In this document: positions 29,601 through 45,180 of the stretch, piece by piece | Position numbering within the stretch: position 1 is the stretch's first letter | Layout: the number at the start of each line of letters is the position of its first letter | IMG/VR virus record: IMGVR_UViG_3300048597_000249 | Origin: an uncultured virus (IMG/VR IMGVR_UViG_3300048597_000249) | Lineage: Duplodnaviria > Heunggongvirae > Uroviricota > Caudoviricetes | Reading direction: 5' to 3' (one strand) | DNA: 64,000 nucleotides | The notes under the pieces: generated by a model | Database searches by the model: none | What the model saw: only the letters and a program-made list of their open reading frames with translations | What the model was told of the DNA's origin: nothing | Position numbers and translations under genes: made by a program

Positions 29601-30786
29601 TGGCTGAAAAAGTATTACTACCAGCCAATGTCAACGCAGCAAGGGAACCAGTCATTTCATCAAGTGTTACACCAGCGCTAGATGCAGTTACACCTAGTTG
29701 ACCAAAACCACTAGATAATTCGGGAATAGATGTAATACCAACATCAACTAATTTTGTCAATTTGGCGAGAATTTCACCACTAGAATTGGTGCTCATACCA
29801 AAAGCAGTCATGGTCTGCACCAACAGTTCCATAACTTGGTTTACGTCACCACCTTGGGTAGCAACTAGTTTCAGCGCATCCGTAACTGTTTTATCTACTA
29901 CAGCTTGATTAGTACCACCATTAGGCATCGCACCAATACCAGCTTGCATGGCGGTATATGTTGCATCAACTGCTTCCATACTGGTTACAGTATTTTTTAG
30001 CGATTTGTTAACCATATTTTGGATATTGTCAAAATAATCCCCCAAAAAATCTTCACCTTTACTCGTTGCTTTTTTTATTTCTTCAGGTATTAATGTACCA
30101 ATACGTGCTAATTGTTGAGTTACTTGTGCATATTGACCAACGAATCCTGCCGCCATTTGTTCAACGTTATTTACATCAATATTGGTTATAGCGGCTTGAA
30201 ACTCTTTAATACTGGCGATAACAGAAGGATCTACGCCTGCTGTCGCCATAATTTGCATGGTTGAATTTACACGAGCAATTTCGTCACCAAGTTGTGAAAA
30301 AGCGCCAGTAAGAATTTTTACACTGTCTACGCCAAATTTAATACCAGCAATTTTCTCCATGGTTTTTTCAACCCCAAGGAGACTTTTACGAAATGTTCCA
30401 ACTGCGTTATTACTAGGTTCCCAAGTTTTTTGTAATCCTTCTATTTTTTTACCAATATTACCTAATAATGTATCGGTTTCCTTTAAATTTTTAGCATTAA
30501 CATCTTTGATACTTTTACCAAATTTATCAAAAGTAGTTTCCGTCAACTTTTGGGTTTTAGTTAATTGCTCGTTTGTTTCTTCTATTCCTTTTTTTAATTT
30601 GTCAATATCTTTACCAGCATCTATTTTTGGCGCATTATTTGTGTTAAATTTACGCATTCCGATATCGGCAACACCTAACGCAGCACGAAACTTCATATTT
30701 TGCGAAGCTTCAATTCCGCTATTTAAATTTTGCAAAATACTAGGTTGTTGATTAGGATCGTAAGGTAAATTAGACATGTTTGCCAA
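23668..30786 (-). CDS. Tail tape measure protein
   Basis: 2372 aa, helical and Ala/Gly-rich; TP901-type core (GITSIPELSSGFGQLG..ASSAGVTLDE); hydrophobic mid-segments; follows chaperones. Confidence 0.93.
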   Translation of the reverse strand: MANMSNLPYDPNQQPSILQNLNSGIEASQNMKFRAALGVADIGMRKFNTNNAPKIDAGKDIDKLKKGIEETNEQLTKTQKLTETTFDKFGKSIKDVNAKNLKETDTLLGNIGKKIEGLQKTWEPSNNAVGTFRKSLLGVEKTMEKIAGIKFGVDSVKILTGAFSQLGDEIARVNSTMQIMATAGVDPSVIASIKEFQAAITNIDVNNVEQMAAGFVGQYAQVTQQLARIGTLIPEEIKKATSKGEDFLGDYFDNIQNMVNKSLKNTVTSMEAVDATYTAMQAGIGAMPNGGTNQAVVDKTVTDALKLVATQGGDVNQVMELLVQTMTAFGMSTNSSGEILAKLTKLVDVGITSIPELSSGFGQLGVTASSAGVTLDEMTGSLAALTLAGSNTFSAMTSLQNVYNKIVSGTVSDRLAEMNATLDGQAVRLDSSTVATKGFVQAIADVDRAIGGSKESWQKVMGGDQEAVRGIFGLLKKDVKGLQDVIDQVANTSASYLEEAFNIKIDTDKVMQFSQALNKVSEIGLKLGKILTPLFSKGLERIDAYADRIEYLVKNYGDVILKIVEMQLALKTLNGIFGILIGTLGKLLGAYGMWLIASGKLAQNFFKIVGMLREQNAVVKANNMLWDQNTSMVKKVLAVLGQLLGFYDLEKAGKDNLTKADKKRIDSEAQTRAVKAAAHKDTMAELEKEIAMYEKVAAVRAGKGTGKQNIFQEADIAERRLADIAVEKQSVTDPKKLAEIAYEESKHREKIAAARRERNNINRLEATNENGDSVESRKRERAKKLKAENDALLSKGEGNLSQREKTRLARNRNVLNRDARMLGRYDDDDIRVSRMAADNSKEAQTKERNARGAMDYYEQNKDKKQFKGQVGRLQNNAAIQWMSSSQLSGYDIGETAQTVDALQDVFNNLDDTLESVKGGFRKTFDVIKITIFKTIDAGKFLIKNLFTVTGAATAGAASILALVGAIGYFNEKNTNYAKDLLKNAGFSDEEIKDTGIKSITDALIEAVKNAAEYWQFIFEKTFNTIGGHLAGFAKLATGAVKLLIQPFLMLPKITAGFLNLLEMGLAKIVNMVLDKVPFGMGNGLKIDESKVKERADTRMTKADGNQKAWLDSIDKAGKDLEDGFKNLGNTLTNAISDYWYRVSGEADKTIARAMLADRRSELEFSINKNLKETDRYNNVLAGGKFADVNIGKENDKQMVNVATTLKDVMGKGVITKDDLQLVDRTIDETKGAMSRTLDQLQSDVGDYGKVAEATLGDTVNRTSLSENDKKMYESYLRERANRSAKGEEYVSTNESEKKVIATATNFSVDQQKQLEDLINKQNKLKLEGKQLEKAEQEKLNQLLENRAILEKDSNKAALDALTTYQKQSEELNRSVKAVKDIEGAFNAVQNYLKNRSDVDGSNNPDATRAINLTGNKQKELADITTNFARTANLLTGEGGMTQEELLKLQKEDPEKYKQLLKDNNVDFTKAGNTSQKIAELVPDIAAQIQSNAASGFTDATTTAKQFEDSVKGTMKSALEAQGIMGEQADDMIKGLLADQNMRQTIAAMEVADHEERLNRIGVEKSVYETLRDSKILATEQGIKAIQNLEMEALDKSIALKKKQLDTLKADDTGTVDQGLIDKVQNEYLQLINQRKVAEYKNIDETTDYRIAKINQELAAYEELKQSEYLLTKEVLDKTQKLEQDKLNAQIAGQRSKIATSKRNGESPEVIMNAEIELTSLLNQQFTQRIKQRQDALAIETRDITAEYKKRAAEMKLAVANGSVNMSDNDRIGMEYDQNDANIQTTIKAQEDLLKIVKEYGGYTAEIEANLLQSRYEQQQNYAQKVIAILDNLSTYYQAIATTETTSITGSINALNNKINIYEKLAQAVDQATNVSQIGSENRDSDMSWLRENVKNSKQLADYEKSYGAAKERALMRQIELEKQAFEIQKKQQEIQTKILEIQQKRDEVQSRAELQQAAIKEQQVLADPNSTNAQKMMASATRESAQVGYESTLAQRPLIDLQKALNSNQNTIDEYSMRNRQTRALEDVRLERGTLTTEGAIAIRGQRVGMDDTPNINTRGFDVNRVQTDYSAESNAVVADIANQAGLINTGMQTESTTDILLSTQLDVQKEMANTLKETKTVIEQLSGNPANSEFFNNFENKRKNGELGGFVTAGKLNSTEEYFMTGQIPNSSSAGSSLPKVNTTVGGSAPKTSNYGNLPQQLINNPENKEFLQGVISGTGGFVQAGKLNPTQDFLHKVSSAQQQGKSVQPILDSYKKTTTTEEEDKKRFAGLTEKQTKNKKQQETAMAWLKNNQGTPNNPKQLAEYYKAMKEGGDPKNEKKDPNKEGAKVEVKPNIQITISTKDDKQIAEDTAKKIDAHLLALFTEAAKTI

Positions 30787-32241: not shown

Positions 32242-32727
32242 TTATTGAAAAACATGCAACATTGTTTTTGGTATGGTATTATCTTCTACAGCAAATTCAT
32301 AGCTATACCAACCAAAAATATAATCACCTGTTCCTTCGGTAAAAATAATTCTTCCAGATGGTTGAAAAGAATTGGATATCATTATTTCGTTGTCGTGCTC
32401 ATGAATATACGTAATTAATGTGTGAATATATTTGCCGATTTGATTTAAAGCAGGTACGTATTTATAATTTGCCGTTAAAATTACACCGTATTCAACTCTT
32501 ATTTGCGATGTTGATTTATGACCAGTTAGTGCAAAAACATCTGCTTCACGAAAAACTTTAAGACAAGGATAATCAATAACAGGAATATTGCGGTCGTCCC
32601 AGTTGCGATAAGTGTTGACAAATTTAAAACTATAATTATCTTTTGCCAGTAAATTTAATTCACTTTGTAAATATTTGGCAATTTTATCACATTGGGTATC
32701 GACAAATTGTAACGCCACTAAAACCAC
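32242..32727 (-). CDS. Putative tail terminator / completion protein
   Basis: DYPCLKVFR motif; precedes tube gene. Confidence 0.5.
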   Translation of the reverse strand: MVLVALQFVDTQCDKIAKYLQSELNLLAKDNYSFKFVNTYRNWDDRNIPVIDYPCLKVFREADVFALTGHKSTSQIRVEYGVILTANYKYVPALNQIGKYIHTLITYIHEHDNEIMISNSFQPSGRIIFTEGTGDYIFGWYSYEFAVEDNTIPKTMLHVFQ

Positions 32728-33152
32728 CTCCGTTTAAGTTTGAGTGGATTTATTTTTTTAGGGATGGTTGTTGGTTTAGTTGTTTGAATTAGCGATGTAC
32801 TTGGTGCTACTTTAGAAAGAGTGTTGCCACCATATAATTTACGTACATGAAGACGACGAGTTACGCCACGATATTTTGGAATACCATTTTGTAAATAAGA
32901 TTTTGGTAGTGCAAATTCGGCGTAATCAGATAAAAACATTGTTTTGTCTGAAAAAAGTGACTTTGTACTTTCTTTTAAAAATAAACGACGAGTTAACTTA
33001 TTGTCGATATTGTTATTAATTTTACTAGCTAGTTTATTATATTTTTTTAATAATTTAAAGTTATCTTTTTTTGGTGGCGCAATATTTTTTGGCGCAACAG
33101 TAATTGCAGTAGTATATCCTCCTAGTGTTTTTAATAAATTACGTCTATTCAC
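32718..33152 (-). CDS. Basic protein with internal MFLSDYAEF leader (ATG at 32939)
   Basis: N-terminal NRRNLLK; internal family leader. Confidence 0.6.
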   Translation of the reverse strand: MNRRNLLKTLGGYTTAITVAPKNIAPPKKDNFKLLKKYNKLASKINNNIDNKLTRRLFLKESTKSLFSDKTMFLSDYAEFALPKSYLQNGIPKYRGVTRRLHVRKLYGGNTLSKVAPSTSLIQTTKPTTIPKKINPLKLKRRWF

Positions 33153-33153
33153 T

Positions 33154-33477
33154 TCATTTCACCACTGTTGAATTAGTAGTTTGTTTTTTGCGGAAAGGAT
33201 TCATCTTCGATAAAAAGTTTTGTTTCGGTTTGGGATTGAGGAAATTTTGCCATTTATCAACTTGACGACGTTGACGACGATTTAATTTATTATCTTTAAT
33301 GTATTTCGCCGTACCAATTCCAGCTAATGTTCCCACTTGTCCAATTTTACGTTTGGTAGAAGCGATTGGATTGAAAGAAGGTTGTTGTACAATTTGTGCT
33401 GATTGTGGATTGCGCAATTCTTCTTGGATATACTTTTTTACCGAGAAGTCAGCAGTGTTTAAATCAGATAAAAACAT
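33154..33477 (-). CDS. AxF-leader basic protein
   Basis: MFLSDLNTADFS. Confidence 0.75.
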   Translation of the reverse strand: MFLSDLNTADFSVKKYIQEELRNPQSAQIVQQPSFNPIASTKRKIGQVGTLAGIGTAKYIKDNKLNRRQRRQVDKWQNFLNPKPKQNFLSKMNPFRKKQTTNSTVVK

Positions 33478-33479
33478 AA

Positions 33480-33845
33480 TTAACTACGCTCACCATTCCA
33501 ATTAAATTTATTTTTCAAAGCATTATAATTGCGCATTAATTTACGACCCATGGTAATTTCTGGTTTATACCTATCATAAACTTTTTTAGTACGATATGCG
33601 CCGTAACCAGCAGCACCTAAACCAGCTAACGCAAGCGGTGTCTTACGAATTGTGCGTCCAGAATTTGCAATACCGTAAGTATGTTTAAGTAAATTACCAG
33701 CGCCATCATAACGAGCTACATTTTGCGCTTTTTTCAGAAAGATTTTACCAATATTATTTTCACCAATATCAGCAATTTTTTTACCCCATTTACTCGCCAT
33801 TGGTGGTAAAGGTGCAGCGAATTCTGCACTATCTGATAGAAACAT
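33480..33845 (-). CDS. AxF-leader basic membrane-helix protein
   Basis: MFLSDSAEFA; LALAGLGAAGYGAY. Confidence 0.75.
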   Translation of the reverse strand: MFLSDSAEFAAPLPPMASKWGKKIADIGENNIGKIFLKKAQNVARYDGAGNLLKHTYGIANSGRTIRKTPLALAGLGAAGYGAYRTKKVYDRYKPEITMGRKLMRNYNALKNKFNWNGERS

Positions 33846-33849
33846 TTGT

Positions 33850-34035
33850 TCAACCTCGTAAGCGTTTTGCCATATTTAACCAACCACGCACATCTTGCGA
33901 AACTCGTTGTGCGGTCGAAACTCCACTGCGCAATTCTCGTGCTTTTTCCCATTGGTTCCAGTCACGATTTACTTTACGTTCTTTTTCGTCTGGTTTCTTT
34001 TTTTTAGCAAATTCGGCAAAGTCATATAAAAACAT
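33850..34035 (-). CDS. AxF-leader basic protein
   Basis: MFLYDFAEFAKKKK; DVRGW motif shared with 35014..35502. Confidence 0.75.
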   Translation of the reverse strand: MFLYDFAEFAKKKKPDEKERKVNRDWNQWEKARELRSGVSTAQRVSQDVRGWLNMAKRLRG

Positions 34036-34069
34036 AATTATTATTCATAAATATATTTTTAATTCTAAC

Positions 34070-34444
34070 TTAAAGTAATTCCCACCATTTACGATTACGT
34101 CGATCATATTCTCGTTGCGCCATATTTAACGCGCCACCACCAACAGCTACACCAGTGCCAATTTTAGCAACATCGCCAACTGGTTTTAACGCTTGTTTAA
34201 TACGATATTCTCTACGATACCCAAACGGATCGTTGTTAATTATTGCTTTATTTTTCAAGATATTTTTTGCTTTTATTCCGCCGTATAATCCTGCGCCAAT
34301 TGTTCCAACACCAGCGGCACGAGTTAACATTCCGGGTAAAGTTTTACCAACAACAATATTTTTCGCCATACCTAACATACCAACTTTCTTTTTTTTATCG
34401 TCAGGGGTTGAAAAAGATGCAGTGTTTATATCGGCTAAAAACAT
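34070..34444 (-). CDS. AxF-leader basic membrane-helix protein
   Basis: MFLADINTASFS; two Gly-rich helices; KWWELL end. Confidence 0.75.
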   Translation of the reverse strand: MFLADINTASFSTPDDKKKKVGMLGMAKNIVVGKTLPGMLTRAAGVGTIGAGLYGGIKAKNILKNKAIINNDPFGYRREYRIKQALKPVGDVAKIGTGVAVGGGALNMAQREYDRRNRKWWELL

Positions 34445-34450
34445 GTTGAA

Positions 34451-35017
34451 TTACCTTTGGTGTGAACGCCATTCAGGGCTGAATAAATTATCGTATCCTT
34501 TTTCAGCGTAAAGAAAGTCGTCATTAATATCTAGTTTATCGACAAAAATATCATTGTTAACAATTGACGTTGGTGGTAATTCTTTCACCAAAGTTTCGCC
34601 ACCTAGTTTTAAACTGCGTGATACATCAATTTCGCCATTTGGTAATGGATTAATTCTTGTTCCAATAGTTAGTCGATCTAATATTTCTTCTGCTTTTTGT
34701 TGTAATACTCCTGCCAAATTACTTAAATCTTGCGAGTTTGAAACAGTATTAACATAATTAAATTGTAATAAATCCGCCATCACTAAATTTTCAACCAAAG
34801 TACGGATAATTGGTTGTGGATGGGTTAACGGTAAAGTGTAAATATTACCAAGAATTAAATCGACATAATTTTCTTTTTCTTCGAGGATGTCGTCAATTAG
34901 ATCTTCGTCAACTGTTTCTACTGGAAAGAATTCAGTATCGACAATATCTACCTTAAGTCGTCCTTTAAGTTTGCGAGCAATAGCATCTCTGTCGGCGTAA
35001 CGTGCAATGTAGGTCAT
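34451..35017 (-). CDS. Head-tail connector (Mu gp36/DUF1320-like)
   Basis: YA....I, YTLPL...PII..L, AEEILDRL pattern. Confidence 0.7.
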   Translation of the reverse strand: MTYIARYADRDAIARKLKGRLKVDIVDTEFFPVETVDEDLIDDILEEKENYVDLILGNIYTLPLTHPQPIIRTLVENLVMADLLQFNYVNTVSNSQDLSNLAGVLQQKAEEILDRLTIGTRINPLPNGEIDVSRSLKLGGETLVKELPPTSIVNNDIFVDKLDINDDFLYAEKGYDNLFSPEWRSHQR

Positions 35018-35502
35018 CGTGATATCCTGTGTATTGTATTAACCCATCCACGAACGTCTCTCGCGACAGATCTAATACCCCTAGTTGTATTGTTAACTCT
35101 TTTTTGAATATCTTCTTTATCTTTTTTCTCTCCGCTTAAATAAGCTGCACCAGTTGGTATTGCTAATGCTGTAGTTGCGATACCAGTGGTTTTACCAACA
35201 CGATTCCAATTAACATTCCTACCACTTCCGACAAAACCACGTCCTTGTTTTTTGCGACCATTTGTATTGATTTCTACTTCTGTTGGACGACTGAAAAAAT
35301 CTTTAGGATTGTTCGCCATATTTTTCAACGCACCACGTTTGTTGTGTGCTAACGCCGCTAAACCAGCACCACTTGCTAATGCACCAACTCGAAACGCTTT
35401 ACCAGCATTTGTTGTACCGACAATTCGATCACGCAATGTAACACGTTTATCTTCTTTTTTCTTCGCAAAATTTGCTGTATCGACCATATCTAATAAGAAC
35501 AC
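35014..35502 (-). CDS. AxF-leader basic membrane-helix protein
   Basis: MFLLDMVDTANFAKKK; GALASGAGLAAL. Confidence 0.75.
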   Translation of the reverse strand: MFLLDMVDTANFAKKKEDKRVTLRDRIVGTTNAGKAFRVGALASGAGLAALAHNKRGALKNMANNPKDFFSRPTEVEINTNGRKKQGRGFVGSGRNVNWNRVGKTTGIATTALAIPTGAAYLSGEKKDKEDIQKRVNNTTRGIRSVARDVRGWVNTIHRISR

Positions 35503-35504
35503 TT

Positions 35505-36200
35505 TTAATACCCCTTACGTTGTTTATCACGATCATGGTTAAATAATTTACTAGCGCCGTATGTAGCAGCGCCAGCACCAAGTAATCCAACCGCGCCTAA
35601 TGAATATTTGTTTAAAAATTTATTAGATTTTTTTGCAACATTTGTGATTGGTATAGATTTTGGAACAGGTGTAGGAGTTGGTATAGATTTTGCAGGAGCT
35701 AATAATAGTTGTTGTTTTGGTGGGGTAGGTGGTTTGGTTCTATTTATTCGACGAGCACGTTTTGGTTTTGTCACATCTACTTGCCGCACAGGAGTATCCC
35801 AATCTACTTGTTGTTCGGGATATTTCCTTTGTCTGATTTTTTCCCTACTTTCTGGCGATAATCTAGATAAACGTTCTTGTTTTGATCTAAGGTTATTTCC
35901 AGCATAACTATCTTGCCCAGGTTTGAACTGTTTATCTCTTTTAAGTGTTGCTCTAGTACCAGCATCAATATTGCGTCTTATTTGTTTTTCAGATAAGATA
36001 AAACCCTCACCTTCTGGAAGAATATTGCCTCTATTATCGGTAGCAATTCCACGACGTTGTAAACGGGATTGTTTTTCCCATACATTTGGATCGAACCCAG
36101 GACTATATCTAAGATCGTTATTTTCTTTAAGCTTTCTATATTGCTCTTTTTTATATCGAGCATAAGCATTTTCAAATTCGGCGATATCAGATAAAAACAT
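35505..36200 (-). CDS. AxF-leader basic protein with C-terminal Gly-rich helix
   Basis: MFLSDIAEFE; LGAVGLLGAGAATYGA. Confidence 0.75.
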   Translation of the reverse strand: MFLSDIAEFENAYARYKKEQYRKLKENNDLRYSPGFDPNVWEKQSRLQRRGIATDNRGNILPEGEGFILSEKQIRRNIDAGTRATLKRDKQFKPGQDSYAGNNLRSKQERLSRLSPESREKIRQRKYPEQQVDWDTPVRQVDVTKPKRARRINRTKPPTPPKQQLLLAPAKSIPTPTPVPKSIPITNVAKKSNKFLNKYSLGAVGLLGAGAATYGASKLFNHDRDKQRKGY

Positions 36201-36202
36201 TG

Positions 36203-36451
36203 TTAATTACGCTCCCGATCCATAAATCTATACACTAATGGTTCTCCAATTACTTTCAACATTTCTGGTTTACTGTTTGCAACACTAATAATGATTTTTT
36301 CAATTTCACCATCTTTAATTTTGCTACGAGTACCAATATACCCTAATGTACGCAATCTTGTGGTAAGACGTGATTTTACCTCGCTGTCGGAAAGCGCAGT
36401 ATCCACAGTTTTACGGTTAAATTGCGCCGTTACCACATCGCACAAGAACAT
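36203..36451 (-). CDS. AxF-leader small protein
   Basis: MFLCDVVTAQFN. Confidence 0.7.
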   Translation of the reverse strand: MFLCDVVTAQFNRKTVDTALSDSEVKSRLTTRLRTLGYIGTRSKIKDGEIEKIIISVANSKPEMLKVIGEPLVYRFMDRERN

Positions 36452-36798
36452 TAGTCTTCCTTGGGTTTACGACCACGTTTAACGACAACTTTGCCGATAT
36501 CGGATTCATCTTCCCGTTTCACTTCAATTTCTTGAACAGGAGGTAGTTCTTCTTTCGGTTGTTCAATTACATTCTGAATAGTTTTTACTTCTACTCCTTT
36601 TTCAGGAACATAAATAGAATTAGCATCTTTGGGTTTAGCTTCTTCAGTAGTTACTACTTCAATAAATTCGCTATTTTCGTCGATGATTAGTTGGGGTAAC
36701 TCACGAGGGCGATATACTTTTGCGTGATAAACAGTTTGGTTACGACCATTTACAATAGTTTTTTTCAACTTTAATGTTTGTTTGTTTGAAAAACCCAT
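36451..36798 (-). CDS. Small head-region protein
   Basis: Ends KRGRKPKED, like small proteins that follow capsid genes. Confidence 0.5.
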   Translation of the reverse strand: MGFSNKQTLKLKKTIVNGRNQTVYHAKVYRPRELPQLIIDENSEFIEVVTTEEAKPKDANSIYVPEKGVEVKTIQNVIEQPKEELPPVQEIEVKREDESDIGKVVVKRGRKPKED

Positions 36799-36839
36799 AA
36801 TTAACTAAATAAATAATAATAATTAATTCTATATTAACA

Positions 36840-37580
36840 TCATCGTTTGTTTTTGTCGCGATTTTGGCGATATAACCCATAAGCACCGACACCAAGTAGT
36901 CCTGCACCAGCCGCTACTCCACCCAATAACATTTTGTTCATTCCACCAGCTTTAATCGGTGTATGAGGTATTTTTGGTGCGCTAGTAGTGCGCTTTAAAG
37001 GCGGCATATTTTGCGCAGAATTACTAACATGTCCAATATTACGACTTGATACTTGTGTGCTAGTTACTGTTGTGTTATTAACGGAGGGAGGAAGTGCTTG
37101 TGGTTGTATTGGTTGAAAAGAAGATGTGGCTATAGTTGACGATATGCTTTTGAATTTATCACGATCTGTTGTGCTGATATAGCTATTAACGTGTTTTTTG
37201 TAAGCTTTAGGTGGAATATTAATATCTAAGCCAGCTATTTTTCTAAGTCTTGCTTTTACGTCTGTTATTTCTTGTCGCCGTTTGCTTAAATTATTTGGGT
37301 TTAAATTATTGGTTGTAGCAGTACCGCCCAACAAAGATCTTAAATTATGATGGTTAATTGTTTGTGTTAAATTATTTATTTTATTGTATTTACCAGGACT
37401 TATTTGCACATCTTTATATTGCGAAGTATTTAGAATTCTTGTGCGCCAATGATTAGGATTTTGTGAATATGGTGCTGTCAAACGAGAAACTGTTAGCGGT
37501 GTTTTCAATGATGTCTCTTCACCACGTCTTAGTTTTTCTAATTCTTTTTCGTAACGTCTTTTAAATTCGGCGATAAACAT
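36840..37580 (-). CDS. AxF-leader basic protein with C-terminal Gly-rich helix
   Basis: MFIAEFKRR; LLGGVAAGAGLLGVGAYGLY. Confidence 0.75.
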   Translation of the reverse strand: MFIAEFKRRYEKELEKLRRGEETSLKTPLTVSRLTAPYSQNPNHWRTRILNTSQYKDVQISPGKYNKINNLTQTINHHNLRSLLGGTATTNNLNPNNLSKRRQEITDVKARLRKIAGLDINIPPKAYKKHVNSYISTTDRDKFKSISSTIATSSFQPIQPQALPPSVNNTTVTSTQVSSRNIGHVSNSAQNMPPLKRTTSAPKIPHTPIKAGGMNKMLLGGVAAGAGLLGVGAYGLYRQNRDKNKR

Positions 37581-37594
37581 AACTTTTCACATAC

Positions 37595-38251
37595 TTAGTA
37601 GTACCATCTTATCCTACCTGGACGAGAATCAAAATGGGTAAAACCCTTACGACGAGCGCCATATCCTAATGCTTTATTACCCCATTTAGAATCAACCCAT
37701 TTTTCAAACTCGATAACTTTACCATTCGCTGGTCTAATATCAACCGCTTTACCCAGTATATGTTGGCTATTCCAAACACCACCAACAGCACGATTAACAT
37801 GTGGCGGACGATACCAGCTAGTAACTAATAATCCACTACCCCATTGTTCACGAATTGGATCTAATAATTTTGCCAAAGTAACAATATTATTACGATGCGA
37901 CACATTCGTTGCTAAACGTTCTCGATATTGAACATAGCGACCATCATTAGTAAGTCCTTGTGCAGATTCTCCGACAGTAAAATAGGTACTAATTTTGCTA
38001 TTGAAGTCGTTCCAATCAATACCTTGTATTTCTCTATATTTTTCAACCAAAAGATTATAACTACTTTCGCCGATTAAAGTTGTTTCACTTAACCAATTAT
38101 CTGTTTTAAATTCTGACCATGCGTATGCTGTATTTTTACCGAAAATACCATCAATTATTTCGTGATAATAATCTAATTTTTTTAATTTAGTTTGTATTGA
38201 TATTAATTCTGCTTTTGTTAGACTTTTAACTTCTTTTGTTTCGGTAATCAT
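37595..38251 (-). CDS. Peptidoglycan-binding domain plus M15-family Zn peptidase
   Basis: IDGIFGKNT; TSWYRPPHVNRAVGG..SQH..GKAVD..FTHFD. Confidence 0.88.
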   Translation of the reverse strand: MITETKEVKSLTKAELISIQTKLKKLDYYHEIIDGIFGKNTAYAWSEFKTDNWLSETTLIGESSYNLLVEKYREIQGIDWNDFNSKISTYFTVGESAQGLTNDGRYVQYRERLATNVSHRNNIVTLAKLLDPIREQWGSGLLVTSWYRPPHVNRAVGGVWNSQHILGKAVDIRPANGKVIEFEKWVDSKWGNKALGYGARRKGFTHFDSRPGRIRWYY

Positions 38252-38294
38252 TTTATTATTTGCGCAATATTATTTTTATTTTAACTTGCATAAC

Positions 38295-38325
38295 AAAAGA
38301 CACCCCTAAAAAGAGGTGCTTTTTT
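38295..38325 (-). terminator. Terminator after major capsid gene
   Basis: CACCTCT-TTTT-AGGGGTG followed by TCTTTTGTT. Confidence 0.7.
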
Positions 38326-38358
38326 ATTTTAGTAAATGAGTTGGGTTTTAAAAAAATT

Positions 38359-39534
38359 CTAATCCCATAAGATCTGGCGGCTTAAGAGTGTCTTAGGATT
38401 TAAACAAATGGCAAGCGCAGTTGCTTTTGCTTCCATAATGTCGACAGCAGAGTTCATAGGATCTTCGTAAGTGCGAGTATAAATACCAGCTTTAGGAGCA
38501 TCGTACAAAGAGTTGCGACCTTCAATGTGTGGACCCCACGCACGATGACTCCCAGAATTAGCCGCTAAAAAACAATACTTGTTCTCATCCAAGAAACGAA
38601 CTTTGGTGAAACCACCGTTACCATCTTCTAAATCATATAAACGATCATGAAGAATAATCGGAGGTAAACCACGATCTTCGAGTACACGACTAAGCACTAC
38701 ATTACTCATTTTCGCAGCAGTTACGCCGGTAGAGAAAGTAGAGGCATACTCAATCGTAGTTTTTTGACGAATCAAATGACGATGTGCAGTCTTGGACATT
38801 ACAATCGCTTTCGGATATGTGCCATTGACTTTCCGGTAAGCTTCGCAATCTAGCTCGATGTCCAAAATACCATCGGCATCATCGTAAGCATCCCAAGAAT
38901 AACGAGTAGTAGAGTCAAATGCACTACCGTTAACAATCGCAGGATCGCCAGGGGCAGGGAAGAAATCGTAATTGGTGGAAGCGTCAGTGTAGTTAACACT
39001 TAGCTTGATATTGGTGCGAGGATCGGTATATTCAATTTTGCCGTCCTGAATAATCTGCCAAGCAAAGTTATCCAACACAGTTTGCAAACCAATCGTCAAA
39101 TCAGCGGCTTTGCCAAAAATAAAATCAGCAAGTTCACCACCAGCACCGGCTTTATTTACAGAACCATCGGGATTGGTGGCATTTTGCACCGTAATCCCTT
39201 GTAGTCCAGCATATTTGCGAACTTCCCACATTCTAAATTGCAACTCTTCATTGAAGACATATTGCAATCCGAGTTTGGCGAAAGTTTGAACTACTTGGCG
39301 AAAATCACCAGCAGAAGTGGTGGGAGCTTTACCGTTAAAACCAATTACAGAAGCGATCGGGCGAATTTTTTCAACGACAACACCGAGGAAATTACGGTCG
39401 TTGTACATTTTGATCGGGAAATATTCATTAAGAACCGGATCTTCGTTGATGGTATCCGCATGGGTATCTTCAACAATCTGATCAACAGTTTTTTTCTGAA
39501 TGTGTTCGTTTAACCAATTAGCAATAATTGCCAT
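38359..39534 (-). CDS. Major capsid protein (phage capsid E-like)
   Basis: 391 aa; LNEYFP, IASVIGF..KAP, PKAIVMS motifs; follows scaffold and decoration genes. Confidence 0.85.
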   Translation of the reverse strand: MAIIANWLNEHIQKKTVDQIVEDTHADTINEDPVLNEYFPIKMYNDRNFLGVVVEKIRPIASVIGFNGKAPTTSAGDFRQVVQTFAKLGLQYVFNEELQFRMWEVRKYAGLQGITVQNATNPDGSVNKAGAGGELADFIFGKAADLTIGLQTVLDNFAWQIIQDGKIEYTDPRTNIKLSVNYTDASTNYDFFPAPGDPAIVNGSAFDSTTRYSWDAYDDADGILDIELDCEAYRKVNGTYPKAIVMSKTAHRHLIRQKTTIEYASTFSTGVTAAKMSNVVLSRVLEDRGLPPIILHDRLYDLEDGNGGFTKVRFLDENKYCFLAANSGSHRAWGPHIEGRNSLYDAPKAGIYTRTYEDPMNSAVDIMEAKATALAICLNPKTLLSRQILWD

Positions 39535-39543
39535 TTTTTACCT

Positions 39544-40401
39544 CTATGCTTTCGTTACAAAGTTGAGCTGAGGTAAACGGCGTTTAATATCTCCATCAAT
39601 ATAAGGAAGATAGTTTTCCCGTACCCCGGAAGAAATGTTATACACACCGATAGTTTGTACTTCGGTATCGGTCATATCCCGTTGATGCGGGTCAACACCA
39701 AGTACCTCATTTACAGTGCGTACACCAATGTGTGAACCAATCGGCAACACAGCACTAGCATTACCAGTGAGCGTGAGTGTGCTCGTTGCAACATTAATAC
39801 TAGCTACAGTACCAAGAGCAGCACCAAATACAGTAAGTGCGCCACTCGCAGTCACAGTAATATCGCCGGATTTAGCAACAGCAAAAGAATACGTGCTAAT
39901 ACCATCTTTAGCGAACACATATACTACTGCGCCAGCAGATTTTGCGAATACTTTTTGCGAAAGTACCGTATCGTTGTTAATCGCATTACGTACCGTCACA
40001 GCAACATCCGCCAATACGGCAGAACCAGTAGTGACAGCAAGAGCGACACCATCAACAGTTACGGTTACTACATCAGTGGTCAAAGGAGTACCACCAAGAG
40101 TCACAGTAGCGTAGGGTTCTACGGCATAAAGAACATCGCCAGGAGCAAAGATTTGGGCAGGAGTGACTACGACGCTAGGGGAATTAGTAGCAGTAGCAAC
40201 GGTAGTAGTTGCACGAGGAAGATAACGAGCCGTATCACCAATCATGGCAACAAACATACCTTCGGGAACTTCGCGTTTACCGGCGGCGTTTAGTTGAATC
40301 TTGGTGTTGTCAATGGTGGCATTACGATTAGCTTCGTTAGTTTCGTGGTAGAGAAAGATGTTTTTCTCTTGAGCGTATTGAGTACGTTTTAAAAATACCA
40401 T
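39544..40401 (-). CDS. Head decoration protein
   Basis: GKREVPEG..V..ENYLPY framework with Thr/Val/Ala-rich insertion; precedes capsid gene. Confidence 0.65.
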   Translation of the reverse strand: MVFLKRTQYAQEKNIFLYHETNEANRNATIDNTKIQLNAAGKREVPEGMFVAMIGDTARYLPRATTTVATATNSPSVVVTPAQIFAPGDVLYAVEPYATVTLGGTPLTTDVVTVTVDGVALAVTTGSAVLADVAVTVRNAINNDTVLSQKVFAKSAGAVVYVFAKDGISTYSFAVAKSGDITVTASGALTVFGAALGTVASINVATSTLTLTGNASAVLPIGSHIGVRTVNEVLGVDPHQRDMTDTEVQTIGVYNISSGVRENYLPYIDGDIKRRLPQLNFVTKA

Positions 40402-40406
40402 TGTGA

Positions 40407-41288
40407 TTAACCTCGACTAGCACGAATAGCGGCAGAGGTTCCCACAATCAACGCTTCTTCTTCGGGGGAAAGTTGTTCCTCGGAATTGAAGTTAGACAGA
40501 GCTTCCTCTTGAATAAGTTCATTAAACATGCCCATTTCGCCCAAACCCATGCGCTCAAACAGTTCAATGATTCCTTGCATTTTCACAAGTTCTTCATTGA
40601 TGTTGTTACCATTGGCTTCGGCAAGTTGAGAAAACATTGCTACACGGTCATCTTCAGAATCGAAAGAACTGAACATAACTTCGTAAGCAACAGGTGGCAT
40701 ATCGCCACTTTCAATCAACTGTTGAGCACGTACATCTAATTTGTGTAGTACATCTTTCAAAGCATTAGCCGCTTGAAATTCGGCGACTTGAGCTTCCAGT
40801 TCATCTACGCGAGGATCATAAGCAGAGTAAGAAGCATTACCGGGAACTTCATCCGCATCCTCTTCATACTCTTCGTCATACTCGCCATCGACTTCGTACT
40901 CATCTTCGTCTTCGTCTTCGATTAAACCGAGGACATCGAGAACATCGTAAGCAAGTTCTTCATCGGGTTCTTCATCGGTAACAATCATGCCGTAAGCTTC
41001 TTCGGGGGTTAATCCGAGTTCATCAGCAAGATCGACGATGTATTCTTCAGGATCTTCGTAACCTAGTTGTTCACCAACTTCGAGCAAGGTAGCACCAAGA
41101 GAGTTACCAGCGGAAAATTCAGCTACTTCAGTTTCTTGTTCGTACTCAGAGAATTGTGCTTCTTCGAGTTCATCAGCAAGTTGAGAGCGAAATTCAGCGG
41201 CTTGTTGGTCAGAAATCAGACCAGCTTGTTCATCTTGATTAATGCGGGCGAGTTGGTAGTTGTAGGCTTCTAGTAATTCACGATTCAT
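40407..41288 (-). CDS. Capsid scaffold protein
   Basis: Very acidic and helical; several AxF sites (AEF, AQF, AMF). Confidence 0.7.
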   Translation of the reverse strand: MNRELLEAYNYQLARINQDEQAGLISDQQAAEFRSQLADELEEAQFSEYEQETEVAEFSAGNSLGATLLEVGEQLGYEDPEEYIVDLADELGLTPEEAYGMIVTDEEPDEELAYDVLDVLGLIEDEDEDEYEVDGEYDEEYEEDADEVPGNASYSAYDPRVDELEAQVAEFQAANALKDVLHKLDVRAQQLIESGDMPPVAYEVMFSSFDSEDDRVAMFSQLAEANGNNINEELVKMQGIIELFERMGLGEMGMFNELIQEEALSNFNSEEQLSPEEEALIVGTSAAIRASRG

Positions 41289-41319
41289 TGTTTTACCTAT
41301 CTTTTAATAACTACCGTTT

Positions 41320-41670
41320 CTAGCGACCAAGTAAAGATTTGATGCGACCTTTAATGGAACGTTTTTGTTTAGCTTCTTCAGCTTTTTTCTTACTGCGTTT
41401 GTTCAAAGCGTATGCACCACCAGCAACACCAGCAGTACCCAAAGCAGCTAAACCAGGAGCAGAGGTAGCTAAACCAAGAGCTTGTTGACCACGTAAAGAA
41501 GCTTGTTCACCAACAGCTTTACCGAGCTTAGTAGCTTGACGACCAAAACCACTTCGGCTAACTTTACGGGCAGTTTTTTTACCCATTGCTTGAAGATTAC
41601 GAAACACACCACCTTTAGCAAACTCAGCAACTTGGTCAGTTACAGAATCATAAATATAATAACGAGACAT
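41320..41670 (-). CDS. AxF-leader basic membrane-helix protein
   Basis: MSRYYIYDSVTDQVAEFAK; GLAALGTAGVAGGAYAL. Confidence 0.75.
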   Translation of the reverse strand: MSRYYIYDSVTDQVAEFAKGGVFRNLQAMGKKTARKVSRSGFGRQATKLGKAVGEQASLRGQQALGLATSAPGLAALGTAGVAGGAYALNKRSKKKAEEAKQKRSIKGRIKSLLGR

Positions 41671-41776
41671 ATTTATTTCCAATTAATAAACAGTACAGTT
41701 TTTATTATTAATTGAAAAAAATTATGTTTACAAAAAGTTAACTAATAGTTAAATAATTTATTTTCGCAGTGTTCAA

Positions 41777-42742
41777 TTATTTCGTTTTATCTTTTCTTTT
41801 TCTATTTTTATACCACGCTACTAAACCCGCTCCGGCTAAGGTTGCTGGTAAAACTCCTAATTGTATAGTATCGGCTATTTTCATACCTTTTGCTAATTTT
41901 AATTTACTTTTATTTGTCTTATGATTATAGTCAGATACACTACCCATAAATCCTGATTTACTAGAGTTTTTATAATTTAAATCGTTTAAATCCATAGCGT
42001 GATTAATTAAAGATAATTTTGGATATTGATGCGCCAACACACCCAGAGTACCTAATGTACCTAATCCTGTGGTAAGTTTTGCATTTTTTCTATCTTGTTC
42101 AGTTCGTTTATTTTGAATTTGTGTGTATAAACTAAACTTAGCGTTATTGTCTTTTTTCTTTTTGTTTTTGCGCCAATGATTTGCGGCTAACAACGCTGGT
42201 ACACCTACTGTAGTTGCGGCAATACCGTACATTAAATTTCGGCGATTTTTTGTTTTGTTCATTATATTTTTCAAACCACTAAGCTGATCTTCTGTCGTCT
42301 TAATTCTTTGCTGATCTAATCCACCAAGTTTAGCACCAGTATATCTGCCTTCTTTCATACTTTGATAAGACGTTTCAAAAGCTTTGAATGCATCATCGCT
42401 ACCCCCAGTGTCTGGGTGATATTTTCTAGCATTTTTGCGGTATATTTGTTTAACCTCTTTAGGATCATAGGTTTTGTCAGGATCTAATCCTAAATATTTT
42501 CTAACAGAATCTCTTATGCTATCTTTTTGATTCTGTTTTTTATAATCCTGTAAACTCTTGTTTATGTAATCATATTGATTTTTAACATCTTTATAATTTT
42601 TGCGATAAATATTACCAATTTGTATAGAAGGATATGCCGCTGCTCCAACTAGACCAGTGGCAACTATACCACGTTTGAGATTTAATTTACGTTCCTCATC
42701 TTTCTTTTTGTTTACAAATTTTGTGAATTCTGCTAAAAACAT
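41777..42742 (-). CDS. AxF-leader membrane protein containing a DnaJ J-domain
   Basis: MFLAEF; LGL..EVKQIYRKNARKYHPDTGGSDDAFK; four hydrophobic Gly/Ala-rich helices. Confidence 0.8.
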   Translation of the reverse strand: MFLAEFTKFVNKKKDEERKLNLKRGIVATGLVGAAAYPSIQIGNIYRKNYKDVKNQYDYINKSLQDYKKQNQKDSIRDSVRKYLGLDPDKTYDPKEVKQIYRKNARKYHPDTGGSDDAFKAFETSYQSMKEGRYTGAKLGGLDQQRIKTTEDQLSGLKNIMNKTKNRRNLMYGIAATTVGVPALLAANHWRKNKKKKDNNAKFSLYTQIQNKRTEQDRKNAKLTTGLGTLGTLGVLAHQYPKLSLINHAMDLNDLNYKNSSKSGFMGSVSDYNHKTNKSKLKLAKGMKIADTIQLGVLPATLAGAGLVAWYKNRKRKDKTK

Positions 42743-42748
42743 AATAAA

Positions 42749-43198
42749 TTACTTTTTATTTTCTTTTGATTTTTTAGTTAACATTTTACCTAACCGATAA
42801 CCACCATAAGCTAAACCTGCCCCACCTAAAGCACCGACAGGAATAGATAAATTTTTTGCCAATTTCATTCGATTATTAGCTTTATTTAACTTGTTAACAG
42901 CGCTAGTGTATTTTTTACCATGTCTTAATGCTATGTTTCCTGATTTAGCCATACCATCTAAATCGTTGTTATTTATATAATTATTTATTTTATCGACCCT
43001 TCGTTTATAACTATTACCAAATCGTTGAACTCGTTTTTCTAGTGGTTTATAACTGTTGTTAACGTAGTCTTCTGATAAAGCTGCACCAATACCAGCACCT
43101 CCACCTACCGCAAGAGCAACTTTAACAGTGTTGTTACGTTTTTCGCGCTCTTGTTCTTGTTTTCTACCAAATTCGGCGAAATCACTTAAAAAATACAT
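42749..43198 (-). CDS. AxF-leader basic two-helix protein
   Basis: MYFLSDFAEFG; GALGGAGLAYGGY. Confidence 0.75.
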   Translation of the reverse strand: MYFLSDFAEFGRKQEQEREKRNNTVKVALAVGGGAGIGAALSEDYVNNSYKPLEKRVQRFGNSYKRRVDKINNYINNNDLDGMAKSGNIALRHGKKYTSAVNKLNKANNRMKLAKNLSIPVGALGGAGLAYGGYRLGKMLTKKSKENKK

Positions 43199-43220
43199 AA
43201 TTTTTTTTAATACTTATTAA

Positions 43221-43676
43221 CTAGTTTAACGTTTTATCTTTTTTGCGATTTCTAATTTTGTTAATTAAAGCTTTACCACCACGGTATAAACTATAACCAA
43301 GTGCTGCTCCACCAACAGAAGCTAATGTTACATTGCGTTTATTATTTCGCAATGATTTACCTACTTTTTCTCGATACTTATAACTTTTATCTTTTAATTT
43401 GGCAGTTTTAACACCCAAACTACGTTCTACATTATTTGATAAGGGTTTATTTTTAATATCCCTTAGCACACTATTTTTTATATATTTATCGCCAGTTTTA
43501 TCGTATCTGGTTGCCAAATTAGACATAGTATCACGATATTTTTTCAAACCAATATTAGAAGCAATACCACCAACAACAGCTCCCGTACCAAGTACAGAAG
43601 CGGTTTGAATTGCTTCATTACGTTTCTTAATATCTTCTTTTTGTTTTGAAAAATCAGCTAAAAATAAATTACTCAT
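43221..43676 (-). CDS. AxF-leader basic two-helix protein
   Basis: MSNLFLADFS; same layout as 42749..43198. Confidence 0.75.
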   Translation of the reverse strand: MSNLFLADFSKQKEDIKKRNEAIQTASVLGTGAVVGGIASNIGLKKYRDTMSNLATRYDKTGDKYIKNSVLRDIKNKPLSNNVERSLGVKTAKLKDKSYKYREKVGKSLRNNKRNVTLASVGGAALGYSLYRGGKALINKIRNRKKDKTLN

Positions 43677-43691
43677 TGTTAAATACTCCAA

Positions 43692-44858
43692 TTAAGCGAA
43701 TGGATTCCGACGATACCAAGGACGTTGTTCTTCACGATCACGTCCAATACCCACCGCATTCAACCCAGCTTTACCCAATCGATATGCGCCATAACCAGCG
43801 GCACCAGTAGCTAATGCTCCGCCCACAGCACGTTTCATATTTAACCCACCACCTGGTTTAGTGAAATAATTATTTAACGTACCTTTCGCCGCCTCCCATT
43901 TACCACGACGAGCATAACCAAAGGCATTTGCTCCAATATTTTTAACATTCGCCAAACCTTTACCTTGTTTTTTCAACCACTCGGAACCAAAAGCAAATTC
44001 GGCACTATCTACAGCGTACAAACTATACGGTGCTTCCATATATGGTGTTTGTTGTAATGAATACGGCGATTGTTCAGTTTCCATGTAATCATCACCATCT
44101 TCGTCAGATTCCATTTCGCCAACACCAAATAAACCACGGATGCGCAGTTCGTAATCAGCAAAAGCTTGTTCCAACAACATTTGACCCTCTTCGCCAAGTT
44201 CTTCTTCCGGTGCTTGGAGGATATTCGTGAGAACTTTATAAAACAGGCAAGAAAGTTGCATAAATTCTTCTTTTAGTTCATCCTCTGTTTGCGCCAATGC
44301 TTCCGCTTCGTCAAGGGAATAGACACCTTGGAGTTCGTTCTGTGCGCCATCATATGTACTAAAAAGAGACATCCCTGGAATCGCTGGATGTCCGACAAGG
44401 GAAATCTCCTTAATCTTATCTGCAACAATGTCGATACCAGGACTTAGTTCTCTTACAAGATTACCTTTAACTTTCTCAACATAGTCTTTGGAACGAATTA
44501 ACATATCTTCGCAAAAAATACCAAGTTTACCGATCAGATTTTTATTTTTTTTATTCGGTAAATCCTCTTCGGTAATTTCTTTTACCACAAATAAATCGTT
44601 TACATCACCAACTAAATCATCAACAGTTTTACCATGTTCTTTGGCGATAGGAATTCTAACACCATTATCTAATGCGCTATTCGAGTTTTCGGCAATTTTA
44701 TAAATACGATCTTCGCTGAAATTATGACTTCTACCTCGATTGTCAACCCAATTCCCAGACGCTAAAACCAATGCTTTTTTGCTAATGCTACCATCTTCGT
44801 GTTCGGTAAAATTAGCATTTACGATACCGCTATTAAAATGCGCAACCTTATTTAACAT
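43692..44858 (-). CDS. Prohead protease (Mu gpI-like) with C-terminal cargo-like extension
   Basis: RIPIAKEH, RELSPGI, EISLVGHPAIPGM; start set at ATG 44858. Confidence 0.75.
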   Translation of the reverse strand: MLNKVAHFNSGIVNANFTEHEDGSISKKALVLASGNWVDNRGRSHNFSEDRIYKIAENSNSALDNGVRIPIAKEHGKTVDDLVGDVNDLFVVKEITEEDLPNKKNKNLIGKLGIFCEDMLIRSKDYVEKVKGNLVRELSPGIDIVADKIKEISLVGHPAIPGMSLFSTYDGAQNELQGVYSLDEAEALAQTEDELKEEFMQLSCLFYKVLTNILQAPEEELGEEGQMLLEQAFADYELRIRGLFGVGEMESDEDGDDYMETEQSPYSLQQTPYMEAPYSLYAVDSAEFAFGSEWLKKQGKGLANVKNIGANAFGYARRGKWEAAKGTLNNYFTKPGGGLNMKRAVGGALATGAAGYGAYRLGKAGLNAVGIGRDREEQRPWYRRNPFA

Positions 44859-44955: not shown

Positions 44956-45180
44956 ATGGAGATAAACGATTTCAATGAAAATGTTGGTTATCGATTACGT
45001 GTAGCTCGTGAACAAAAAGAAATCAAAGGTTCCACAGCAGCTCGTAAACTCGGTTTTACCAACGCTTATCTCTCTCAAATGGAAAATGGTAAACGTAACG
45101 TTAGTTTACAAAACTTAATAAAATTCTGCGAATTATACGACAAGGACGTAGTATATTTTTTACAAGATATTAAAAAATAG
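44956..45180 (+). CDS. XRE-family HTH regulator
   Basis: LRVAR...AARKLGFTNAYLSQMENGKRNVSL. Confidence 0.9.
   Translation: MEINDFNENVGYRLRVAREQKEIKGSTAARKLGFTNAYLSQMENGKRNVSLQNLIKFCELYDKDVVYFLQDIKK

Follow-up and report, generated by a model that had tools for sequence, protein, structure and literature searches.

Phage T4 and the giant phages load proteins into their heads and then trim them. In T4, diverse basic head proteins (IPI-III, Alt) carry a short N-terminal capsid-targeting sequence (CTS) that is removed by the protease gp21, and the motif ending this tag, L/I-x-E, is also found in the scaffold and in the protease itself. In giant phages (SPN3US gp245, phiKZ gp175), many head proteins bear N-terminal propeptides, mostly of 111-254 residues, the protease loses a C-terminal piece, and gp245 cuts after A-x-E with a preference for Val at P4 and Ser at P1' (PMC10052503). 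Phage 80alpha, which lacks a prohead protease of its own, uses a host enzyme instead: the cysteine protease Prp, known for cutting ribosomal protein L27 in Firmicutes, cleaves the capsid and scaffold proteins between F and A and removes 13-14 N-terminal residues (PMC5744158), one precedent for F/A cutting at the N-terminus of a phage protein. Here, we analysed a 64,000-nucleotide stretch of DNA from an uncultured virus of the Caudoviricetes (IMG/VR record IMGVR_UViG_3300048597_000249; this whole stretch is the "window" below), in which 13 minus-strand genes (L1-L13, within 32718-43676) open with a common leader made of M-F-L-x-D, a spacer of 0-4 residues, and A-x-F. Comparisons across related phages support, indirectly, the view that this leader is part of the head-assembly machinery and resembles a protease site. 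We consider it rather probable that the leader serves as a load-and-trim tag like that of T4 but follows a new cutting rule, in which Phe would occupy P1, the position immediately before the cut.

A Phe-ended propeptide tag would be new, whereas propeptide-cargo systems as such were already known from T4 and the giant phages. As in T4, a short N-terminal tag is found on diverse basic proteins encoded among head genes, the end of this tag coincides with the proposed cleavage motif of the protease, and the same motif recurs in the scaffold and within the protease. Unlike T4, a myovirus with a T4-type core, the cultured relatives of this virus are siphoviruses, the motif ends in Phe rather than Glu, and the system comprises 13 tagged genes plus a tagged protease tail, with a putative cargo that consists mostly of Gly-rich helices. 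The likeness to giant phages lies in the number of putative head proteins with N-terminal propeptides and in a protease predicted to lose its C-terminal piece. It extends to the cleavage rule (Ala at P3, any residue at P2, Val at P4, Ser at P1'), which is mirrored by V-A-E-F/S in the window scaffold, where V-A-E-F/Q is also present (slashes mark known or proposed borders throughout). Giant phages differ in having Glu at P1 and much longer propeptides (6-17 residues here), and they are jumbo myoviruses. The analogy with T4 and giant phages drawn in the original prediction, which had been made from the window sequence alone, was thus apt in light of the A-x-E rule of gp245 (PMC10052503), and its interpretation as a whole is partly supported.

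All 13 leaders named in that prediction were recovered on the minus strand at the start of small basic proteins (Table 1), and the two residues described as invariant, Ala and Phe, proved to be so: A-x-F is found in 13 of 13 leaders, and the last leader position is always Phe, not Glu as at P1 in T4 and giant phages. Variants departing from the M-F-L-x-D consensus include MFIAEF, MFLAEF, MYFLSDFAEF, MSNLFLADF, and MSRYYIYDSVTDQVAEF, and the residue following the leader Phe is A, S, or G in 9 of the 13. With automatic calling of open reading frames (ORFs), the motif was present in 11 of the 19 ORFs within 32.7-43.7 kb and in none of the 50 outside (Fisher test, 4e-8), L10 and L13 having been lost at this step and entered by hand. 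The enrichment over shuffled N-termini that had been anticipated was confirmed, as shuffling only the first 24 residues yielded a mean of 0.06 motif matches (maximum 3), and shuffling whole proteins a mean of 0.03 (maximum 2). Across the 64-kb window, a strict six-frame pattern matched 12 times, including nine leader ORF starts and three non-start positions elsewhere; a loose regular expression for the leader gave false positives and served for listing, never for counting. Leader codons vary synonymously (TTT/TTC, TTA/CTA/TTG, and GCC/GCA/GCT/GCG, with variation at F, L, S, A, and E codons alike), hence selection acts on the leader peptide. A shared promoter or ribosome-binding-site repeat was rejected as an explanation, since the 40 bases upstream of these genes are unlike each other and the codons differ synonymously. 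Finally, MFLSDYAEF, first listed as an internal copy of the motif, most plausibly marks where the 73-residue gene L13 truly starts, because the orthologue in the related locus L016 begins exactly there. A longer L13 ORF, reaching to 33152, would add 71 in-frame residues of doubtful coding status; these begin with MNRRNLLKTLGG, which resembles a twin-arginine signal, and are absent from the L016 orthologue.

The tagged proteins have a distinctive charge profile. Net charge is negative (-1 or -2) in each of the 13 leaders and positive (+5 to +37) in each of the 13 bodies, and the isoelectric points (pI) of the 12 leader proteins computed range from 9.5 to 11.3, vs. 4.1 to 5.9 for the scaffold, capsid, decoration, adaptor, and protease proteins. 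Over the 15 residues that follow the leader Phe, the net charge is positive in 12 of 13 cases. Uncharged Gly-rich segments were detected in 8 of the 13 proteins under a strict rule, in line with their description as Gly-rich. The second part of that description, "mostly membrane-helix", fared less well: the usual transmembrane cut-off on the Kyte-Doolittle scale is 1.6, the best 19-residue hydropathy of the 12 proteins computed ranges from -0.27 to 1.61, and membrane helices are not established here because this threshold is reached by one protein only (L5, 1.61). Most of the Gly-rich helices are not hydrophobic enough to count as classical membrane helices. The leader proteins might still be late membrane proteins (lysis proteins, superinfection exclusion proteins, or assembly-site factors), with a tag serving membrane insertion, stability, or translation, rather than capsid contents. 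Uncharged Gly/Ala-rich helices followed by basic clusters do look like membrane anchors, and L5 does attain the threshold. We nevertheless give this alternative little probability, given that the maximal hydropathy stays below 1.6 in 11 of 12 proteins, that no Pfam membrane or glycine-zipper family was matched, and that leader genes are interleaved with head genes only. The enrichment of the motif in the scaffold, its location inside the protease, and the presence of two leader-bearing counterparts in virions of a cultured relative, all described below, also speak against it.

Searches for known domains returned few matches. None of the 13 leader proteins matched a Pfam glycine-zipper family at E <= 0.01, and 11 of 13 had no match in Pfam and PHROGs, the exceptions being sub-threshold matches to DUF5409 and MsrA_helical. 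L3 matches Pfam DnaJ (E 2.1e-6, 28.1 bits for a cut-off of 27.8) and NCBIfam DnaJ models (E 1e-4), with a J domain that includes the HPD motif and sits between Gly-rich segments; no other NCBIfam match was obtained for the leader proteins. If packaged, L3 would be a virion-borne, co-chaperone-like protein. Structural look-alikes of L2 in the ESM Atlas were unnamed viral clusters (0.84-0.87, to be taken as leads only), helical hairpins falling below the bar. In relatives of the 150-kb class, two proteins (L010:4920-6065 and L006:4786-5850) combine a leader (..ITF/A..), a Gly-rich helix, and a domain of ~250 residues with a GxSxG-like "SAGG" motif, which may be a hydrolase cargo. Together with the J domain of L3, this hydrolase-looking domain suggests that the putative cargo is not restricted to Gly-rich proteins.

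To place the leader in a comparative context, we relied on the major capsid protein, for which 22 homologues were identified in a large protein collection, and none in 185,579 species genomes or, when using a single-sequence query, in IMG/VR. Relatives were instead fetched with a capsid alignment, yielding 11 viral and 16 metagenomic loci (three-digit labels hereafter). Among isolates, the Pseudanabaena siphoviruses Pam2 and PA-SR01 come nearest (capsid 30% identical); the cultured relatives infect cyanobacteria, and the source virus is cyanophage-like. Leaders ending in x-F were found in every other lineage examined besides L004/L013. They include MFLSDVCEAQF, MFLRDVAEF, MFLSDHVASF, MFLCDCAEF, and others in L016 (capsid 77% identical); MYYLSEF/A, MYYLADF/K, and YYYMADF/G in L023 (39%); MYLLSDF/V, MWLLVDF/A, and MISLLCDLALF/A in L019/L020 (about 35%); MRKIIFANSTNLNF/GRGRDKKKRK (..TNLNF/) and similar sequences in L010-L012 (28%), two of which are on 150- and 81-kb contigs; and MSLKAEF/A, MRKSANF/A, and MKHFANF/N in Pam2 and PA-SR01.

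The closest comparison, which sets the window against L016/L014 (capsid identity 74-77%), reveals how the leader evolves. The bodies of orthologous leader proteins are 28-70% identical. Both M-F-L-x-D and x-F persist, and the spacer linking D to A-x-F is of variable length. The position of Phe is fixed relative to the body (AEF/ALPKSYL vs. AQF/GIPKSYL, and ADF/SVKKYIQEEL vs. ASF/SKLKGYIQNEL). This pattern fits a two-anchor signal, the last residue of which would mark a border. It also bears on whether the shared N-terminus could be a functionless relic of gene duplication in fast-diverging paralogues, an idea prompted by the clear paralogy of L1 and L2 (E 2.5e-14) and by several pairs being weakly similar beyond the leader. 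Such a relic is hardly credible, since the leader is kept while bodies diverge past detection, tolerates indels in its spacer only, recurs in lineages with capsids just 28-39% identical, and has its motif repeated in scaffold and protease proteins that are not paralogues of the leader proteins. The tagged ORFs had been described as largely dissimilar, which is mostly the case, apart from L1/L2 and a few other pairs with a Gly-rich module in common.

The gene next to L1 encodes the candidate enzyme. This protein is organised as a domain of ~170 residues, an acidic helical region, a border reading ..PYSLYAVDSAEF/AFGS.. (YAVDSAEF), and a basic Gly-rich tail. Neither the window protein nor seven relatives matched a Pfam family at E <= 1 (Peptidase_S78 and Mu-like_Pro included), and a profile search against PDB sequences returned spurious coiled-coil matches only. 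In the PA-SR01 paper, HHpred matches the ORF24 product of that phage to PF10123. An AlphaFold2 model built from an alignment of eight relatives was more informative, residues ~20-170 being modelled with a predicted local distance difference test score (pLDDT) of 70-91. The top Foldseek matches of this model in the PDB were herpesvirus proteases, with a probability of 0.99 and an E-value of only 1e-2. Structural alignment of the protease domain with VIA-align reached a Z-score of 10.2 (varicella-zoster virus protease, 1vzv; root-mean-square deviation 3.0, 114 aligned residues), and the top 25 rows were all herpesvirus assemblins. In BFVD, 143 matches were obtained at E <= 0.001, and those with names were capsid maturation proteases, prohead serine proteases, or "Mu-like prophage I protein". 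The predicted fold is thus that of herpesvirus assemblins and prohead proteases, and H75 and S139, invariant in eight protease sequences, are a candidate catalytic pair. The fold of residues ~20-170 and the fusion of the protease to a helical scaffold-like region are shared with assemblin and with the HK97 and Mu gpI fusions; unlike these families, the window protease lacks a Pfam or PDB sequence match. To our knowledge, a basic Gly-rich tail behind A-x-F is not a known feature of any of them.

The internal border of the protease, DSAEF/AFGS, looks like a leader and divides the acidic region from the basic tail. The tail itself resembles the cargo (BLASTP E 2.4e-5 to L11 and 8e-4 to L1) and, judging from these matches, is a cargo-like module fused to the protease. 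This layout extends well beyond the window. A protease-domain profile retrieved 407 representative proteins at E <= 1e-3 (195 at 1e-10, 110 at 1e-30), and we surveyed the best 150 of these 407, or 146 after dropping four under 260 residues. A-[EDNSQ]-F occurs after residue 190, i.e., behind the protease domain, in 91 of the 146, compared to a mean of 26.6 and a maximum of 39 in 200 shuffles, and it is followed by a net-basic remainder in 65 of the 146 (e.g., ..LAEF/GYRKA.., ..AEF/RRRRNK..). The residue at P1' of this border is Gly in 21 relatives and Ala in 13. Because 91 of 146 relatives carry it, A-x-F is a hallmark of the protease clade rather than of a single genome.

Among the other head proteins, A-x-F is concentrated in the scaffold. 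In the window scaffold-like protein, where the motif is 8-12-fold enriched, four A-x-F sites have a small or polar residue directly after them, for 0.34 expected, a count reached in none of 2000 shuffles. Across lineages, 10 of 11 scaffolds include 3-5 such sites vs. 0.2-0.7 expected (p <= 0.007), although these counts are not independent because the scaffolds are homologous. The scaffold of L004 has none, and L004/L013 is the sole lineage without leader genes. None of the window's own proteins of the capsid, decoration, adaptor, M15, and tape-measure types showed an A-x-F excess, and across lineages the pattern with a small or polar residue was not in excess in 13 of 15 control proteins of these types (p > 0.2). 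The exceptions are the decoration-like proteins of L010 (2 vs. 0.23 expected, p 0.016) and, marginally, of Pam2 (2 vs. 0.52 expected, p 0.09). Plain A-x-F is also elevated in the L010 capsid protein (4 vs. 1.33 expected, p 0.036).

Pam2 and PA-SR01 provide a view of the motif as a module border. In these phages, fusion of Gly-rich modules has in part given rise to proteins of 340-640 residues, in which the internal joints read ..IRKS-A[NES]F.., and PA-SR01 additionally has free-standing genes that begin with MRKSANF... The module QDPATIQRL.. follows A-x-F in both phages behind different modules, i.e., modules have been exchanged exactly at A-x-F borders. Because modules fuse and split at this motif, A-x-F looks like a processing site. 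Mass spectrometry (MS) of purified Pam2 particles detected ORF15 (MSLKAEF..), ORF17 (..KKAEF..), ORF19, and the capsid protein ORF20, and did not detect ORF14 (protease), ORF18 (scaffold), or ORF16 (PMC9382816, Supplementary Table 2). Both ORF15 and ORF17 are A-E-F-led polyproteins. For PA-SR01, particle proteins were separated on sodium dodecyl sulfate-polyacrylamide gels only, with no mass spectrometry. The link to head assembly and the protease-site character claimed in the original prediction are supported indirectly, through the conserved protease border, the enrichment confined to the scaffold, the polyprotein borders, and the two A-E-F-led proteins in Pam2 virions.

An A-x-F element with a hydrophobic lead-in could also be an uncut docking motif for a pocket on the scaffold, capsid, or portal protein, with the leader kept on the mature protein. 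A common binding partner would equally explain a motif found in scaffold, protease, and cargo, certain A-x-F positions of the scaffold show the kind of conservation expected of structural residues, and an invariant I-A-x-W is found at the N-terminus of the capsid protein. In 80alpha, moreover, assembly requires the N-terminal sequence of the scaffold but can do without scaffold cleavage (PMC5744158). Docking alone is, however, an unlikely reading in our judgement: the motif sits at the borders of modules whose fused or split state differs between Pam2 and PA-SR01, it marks the acidic/basic border of the protease family-wide, a pattern typical of processing sites, and P1' is mostly Gly, Ala, or Ser.

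If the leaders are cut, the enzyme could conceivably be a host protease, as when Prp cuts F/A at L27 and at the N-termini of the 80alpha capsid and scaffold. The outline is alike, in that a short Phe-ended extension followed by a small residue is present on non-homologous phage proteins (PMC5744158). Here, unlike in 80alpha, the phage encodes its own prohead protease, in a gene that adjoins those of its putative substrates, and the motif is built into this protease in the window and in most relatives. Leaders of the L010 type (..NLNF/GRGKDK) superficially resemble the L27-type extension. We know of no report of Prp-type L27 extensions in cyanobacteria, and a Pfam scan of 69 window ORFs (25 + 44) revealed no Prp-like family. 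Overall, cutting by a host enzyme appears very improbable.

Returning to the load-and-trim reading, the following scheme would account for these observations. The phage's own assemblin-fold prohead serine protease (43692-44858) would recognise A-x-F and cut there, most likely directly after Phe. The acidic-hydrophobic leader would act as a removable propeptide marking the 13 very basic proteins for the procapsid interior, which they would enter together with scaffold and protease before being trimmed at A-x-F. The A-x-F sites of the scaffold would be cut as well, fragmenting it, and the basic Gly-rich tail would be released from the protease. Trimmed basic bodies may then stay with the DNA in the filled head as internal proteins, and later contribute to DNA charge neutralisation, ejection, membrane insertion, or, via the J domain, host takeover. 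From sequence comparisons, we infer the cleavage itself, its place after Phe, and the identity of the enzyme, as well as the role of the leader, rather than the body, in conferring loading. The 1090-residue protein encoded upstream of the protease, with ..NVVEF/ARKN near its N-terminus and ..LQYVEF/AQYQKKWATF/GAPK at its C-terminus, is a possible further substrate; it matched no Pfam family.

Several observations weigh against this scheme. The Pam2 MS table gives presence or absence per protein, without peptide positions. ORF16, one of three Gly-rich head-module proteins of Pam2, was MS-negative; it has an internal A-x-F and no N-terminal leader. Several scaffold A-x-F positions are conserved among homologous scaffolds and could be structural or docking residues, not cut sites. 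Neither Pfam nor the PDB yielded a sequence match for the protease, its family assignment being based on its fold and one PHROG match, and its 146 relatives are homologues, i.e., 91 of 146 does not amount to 91 independent events. Lastly, the N-terminus of the protease includes conserved ..VAHF.. and ..NANF.. sequences, and because these probably belong to the fold, not every A-x-F can be a cut site.

More tentatively, A-x-Phe may define a class of cleavage specificity among assemblin-fold prohead proteases that has gone unrecognised, spanning several hundred protein clusters from uncultured phages and cyanophages, around which a plug-and-play loading system evolved. Proteins placed behind a 6-17-residue leader, or between A-x-F joints, would be trimmed once packed into the siphovirus head and delivered together with the DNA, the cargo comprising J-domain, hydrolase-like, and basic glycine-zipper proteins acting on the host envelope or the incoming DNA. 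We found no account of a Phe-ended leader or of an A-x-F prohead-protease site in the literature on Pam2/PA-SR01, capsid targeting, Mu-like prohead cleavage, or glycine-zipper ejection. Confirmation of the cut would supply a large and almost unstudied protease clade (407 clusters, E <= 1e-3) with a rule for cleavage, namely Ala at P3 and Phe at P1, and mature virion proteins would become predictable from sequence in hundreds of uncultured phage genomes. The load-then-trim strategy of T4 and giant phages would then also exist in long-tailed siphoviruses, where it would have grown to more than 12 cargo genes in each genome, encoded both as single genes and as polyproteins. The idea is directly testable thanks to two cultured members of the clade (Pam2, PA-SR01) and to the Pam2 virion MS data, and a 9-residue capsid-loading tag would also serve the packaging of foreign proteins.

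Table 1 Leader genes, head-module genes, and other features of the window. Positions are those of the window; aa, amino acids.
Feature	Position	Strand	Length (aa)	Leader	Remarks
L1	43221-43676	-	151	MSNLFLADF	Two Gly-rich segments; paralogue of L2
L2	42749-43198	-	149	MYFLSDFAEF	Two Gly-rich segments
L3	41777-42742	-	321	MFLAEF	J domain (..KYHPDTGG..) and Gly-rich segments
L4	41320-41670	-	116	MSRYYIYDSVTDQVAEF	L016 and L014 orthologues begin alike
L5	36840-37580	-	246	MFIAEF	Gly-rich helix at C-terminus
L6	36203-36451	-	82	MFLCDVVTAQF	No Gly-rich segment
L7	35505-36200	-	231	MFLSDIAEF	Pro-rich middle; Gly-rich helix at C-terminus
L8	35014-35502	-	162	MFLLDMVDTANF	GTG start; L016 orthologue 50% identical, leader MFLSDHVASF
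L9	34070-34444	-	124	MFLADINTASF	Two Gly-rich segments
L10	33850-34035	-	61	MFLYDFAEF	L016 orthologue 67% identical, leader MFLSDFNAANF
L11	33480-33845	-	121	MFLSDSAEF	Gly-rich helix LALAGLGAAGYGAY; L016 orthologue leader MFLADF
L12	33154-33477	-	107	MFLSDLNTADF	
L13	32718-32939	-	73	MFLSDYAEF	L016 orthologue starts at MFLSDASEAQF
In-frame extension upstream of L13	32940-33152	-	71		Doubtful coding status
1090-aa protein	45244-48516	-	1090		Upstream of protease, position of Pam2 gp7
Prohead protease protein	43692-44858	-	388		From ATG at 44858; PHROG 976 "head maturation protease", E 1.2e-6
C-terminal protease tail	43692-43994	-			Residues 289-388, after A-E-F; basic, Gly-rich (..GGALATGAAGYGAYRLGK..)
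Scaffold-like acidic protein	40407-41288	-			pI 4.1; five A-x-F: AAEF, EAQF, EVAEF/S, QVAEF/Q, VAMF/S
Second shell / decoration-like protein	39544-40401	-			No A-x-F; matched to Pam2 ORF19 by gene position only
Major capsid protein	38359-39534	-			PHROG 29, E 3e-21
PG_binding_1 + Peptidase_M15_3 protein	37595-38251	-			Within head module; no leader
Head-tail adaptor-like protein	34451-35017	-			No leader; Pfam Phage_Mu_Gp36 E 2e-4 (below cut-off), PHROG 195 E 6.5e-4
Tape-measure protein	23668-30786	-	2372		
Mu-type portal	9321-10679	+			Pfam Portal_Mu E 9e-13
Lysozyme-type endolysin with peptidoglycan-binding domain	12671-13474	+			Second peptidoglycan hydrolase of the window
Helix-turn-helix-like ORF	44956-45180	+	74		Antisense, between protease and 1090-aa genes

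The leader genes are part of a head-morphogenesis module of a tailed phage, which covers 32.7-48.5 kb of the window entirely on the minus strand, in the order 1090-residue protein, protease, L1-L4, scaffold-like, decoration-like, capsid, M15 protein, L5-L13, and tail genes. The nine small genes L5-L13 are interrupted by the Mu gp36-like adaptor. The head genes had been called Mu-like, which applies loosely: a Portal_Mu protein is encoded, a Mu gp36 match is sub-threshold, and "Mu-like prophage I protein" is among the fold matches of the protease. The portal gene itself is on the opposite strand, at a distance of 35 kb from the head module, and adjoins PhoH and VapE-like genes. With these genes and the lysozyme-type endolysin, the remainder of the window is phage-like as well. 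Pam2 ORF19, the positional counterpart of the decoration-like protein, lies between the scaffold and capsid genes. The N-terminus of the capsid protein, M-A-x-I-A-x-W-L-N-E, is near-invariant in 20 homologues, with M1 and W7 invariant, and reads I-A-S-F-F in the L010 lineage, i.e., an A-x-aromatic element like the leader motif.

Other features of the window touch on the virion and its regulation. The M15 peptidase with a peptidoglycan-binding domain, encoded within the head module, may be virion-associated. The size of the tape-measure protein implies a very long tail, which agrees with the ~300 nm tail of Pam2 (PMC9382816). At the position of the helix-turn-helix-like ORF, Pam2 has an annotated helix-turn-helix regulator on the reverse strand (Pam2_11, 81 residues), and PA-SR01 a reverse-strand ORF of the same length as Pam2_11, annotated as a hypothetical protein only.

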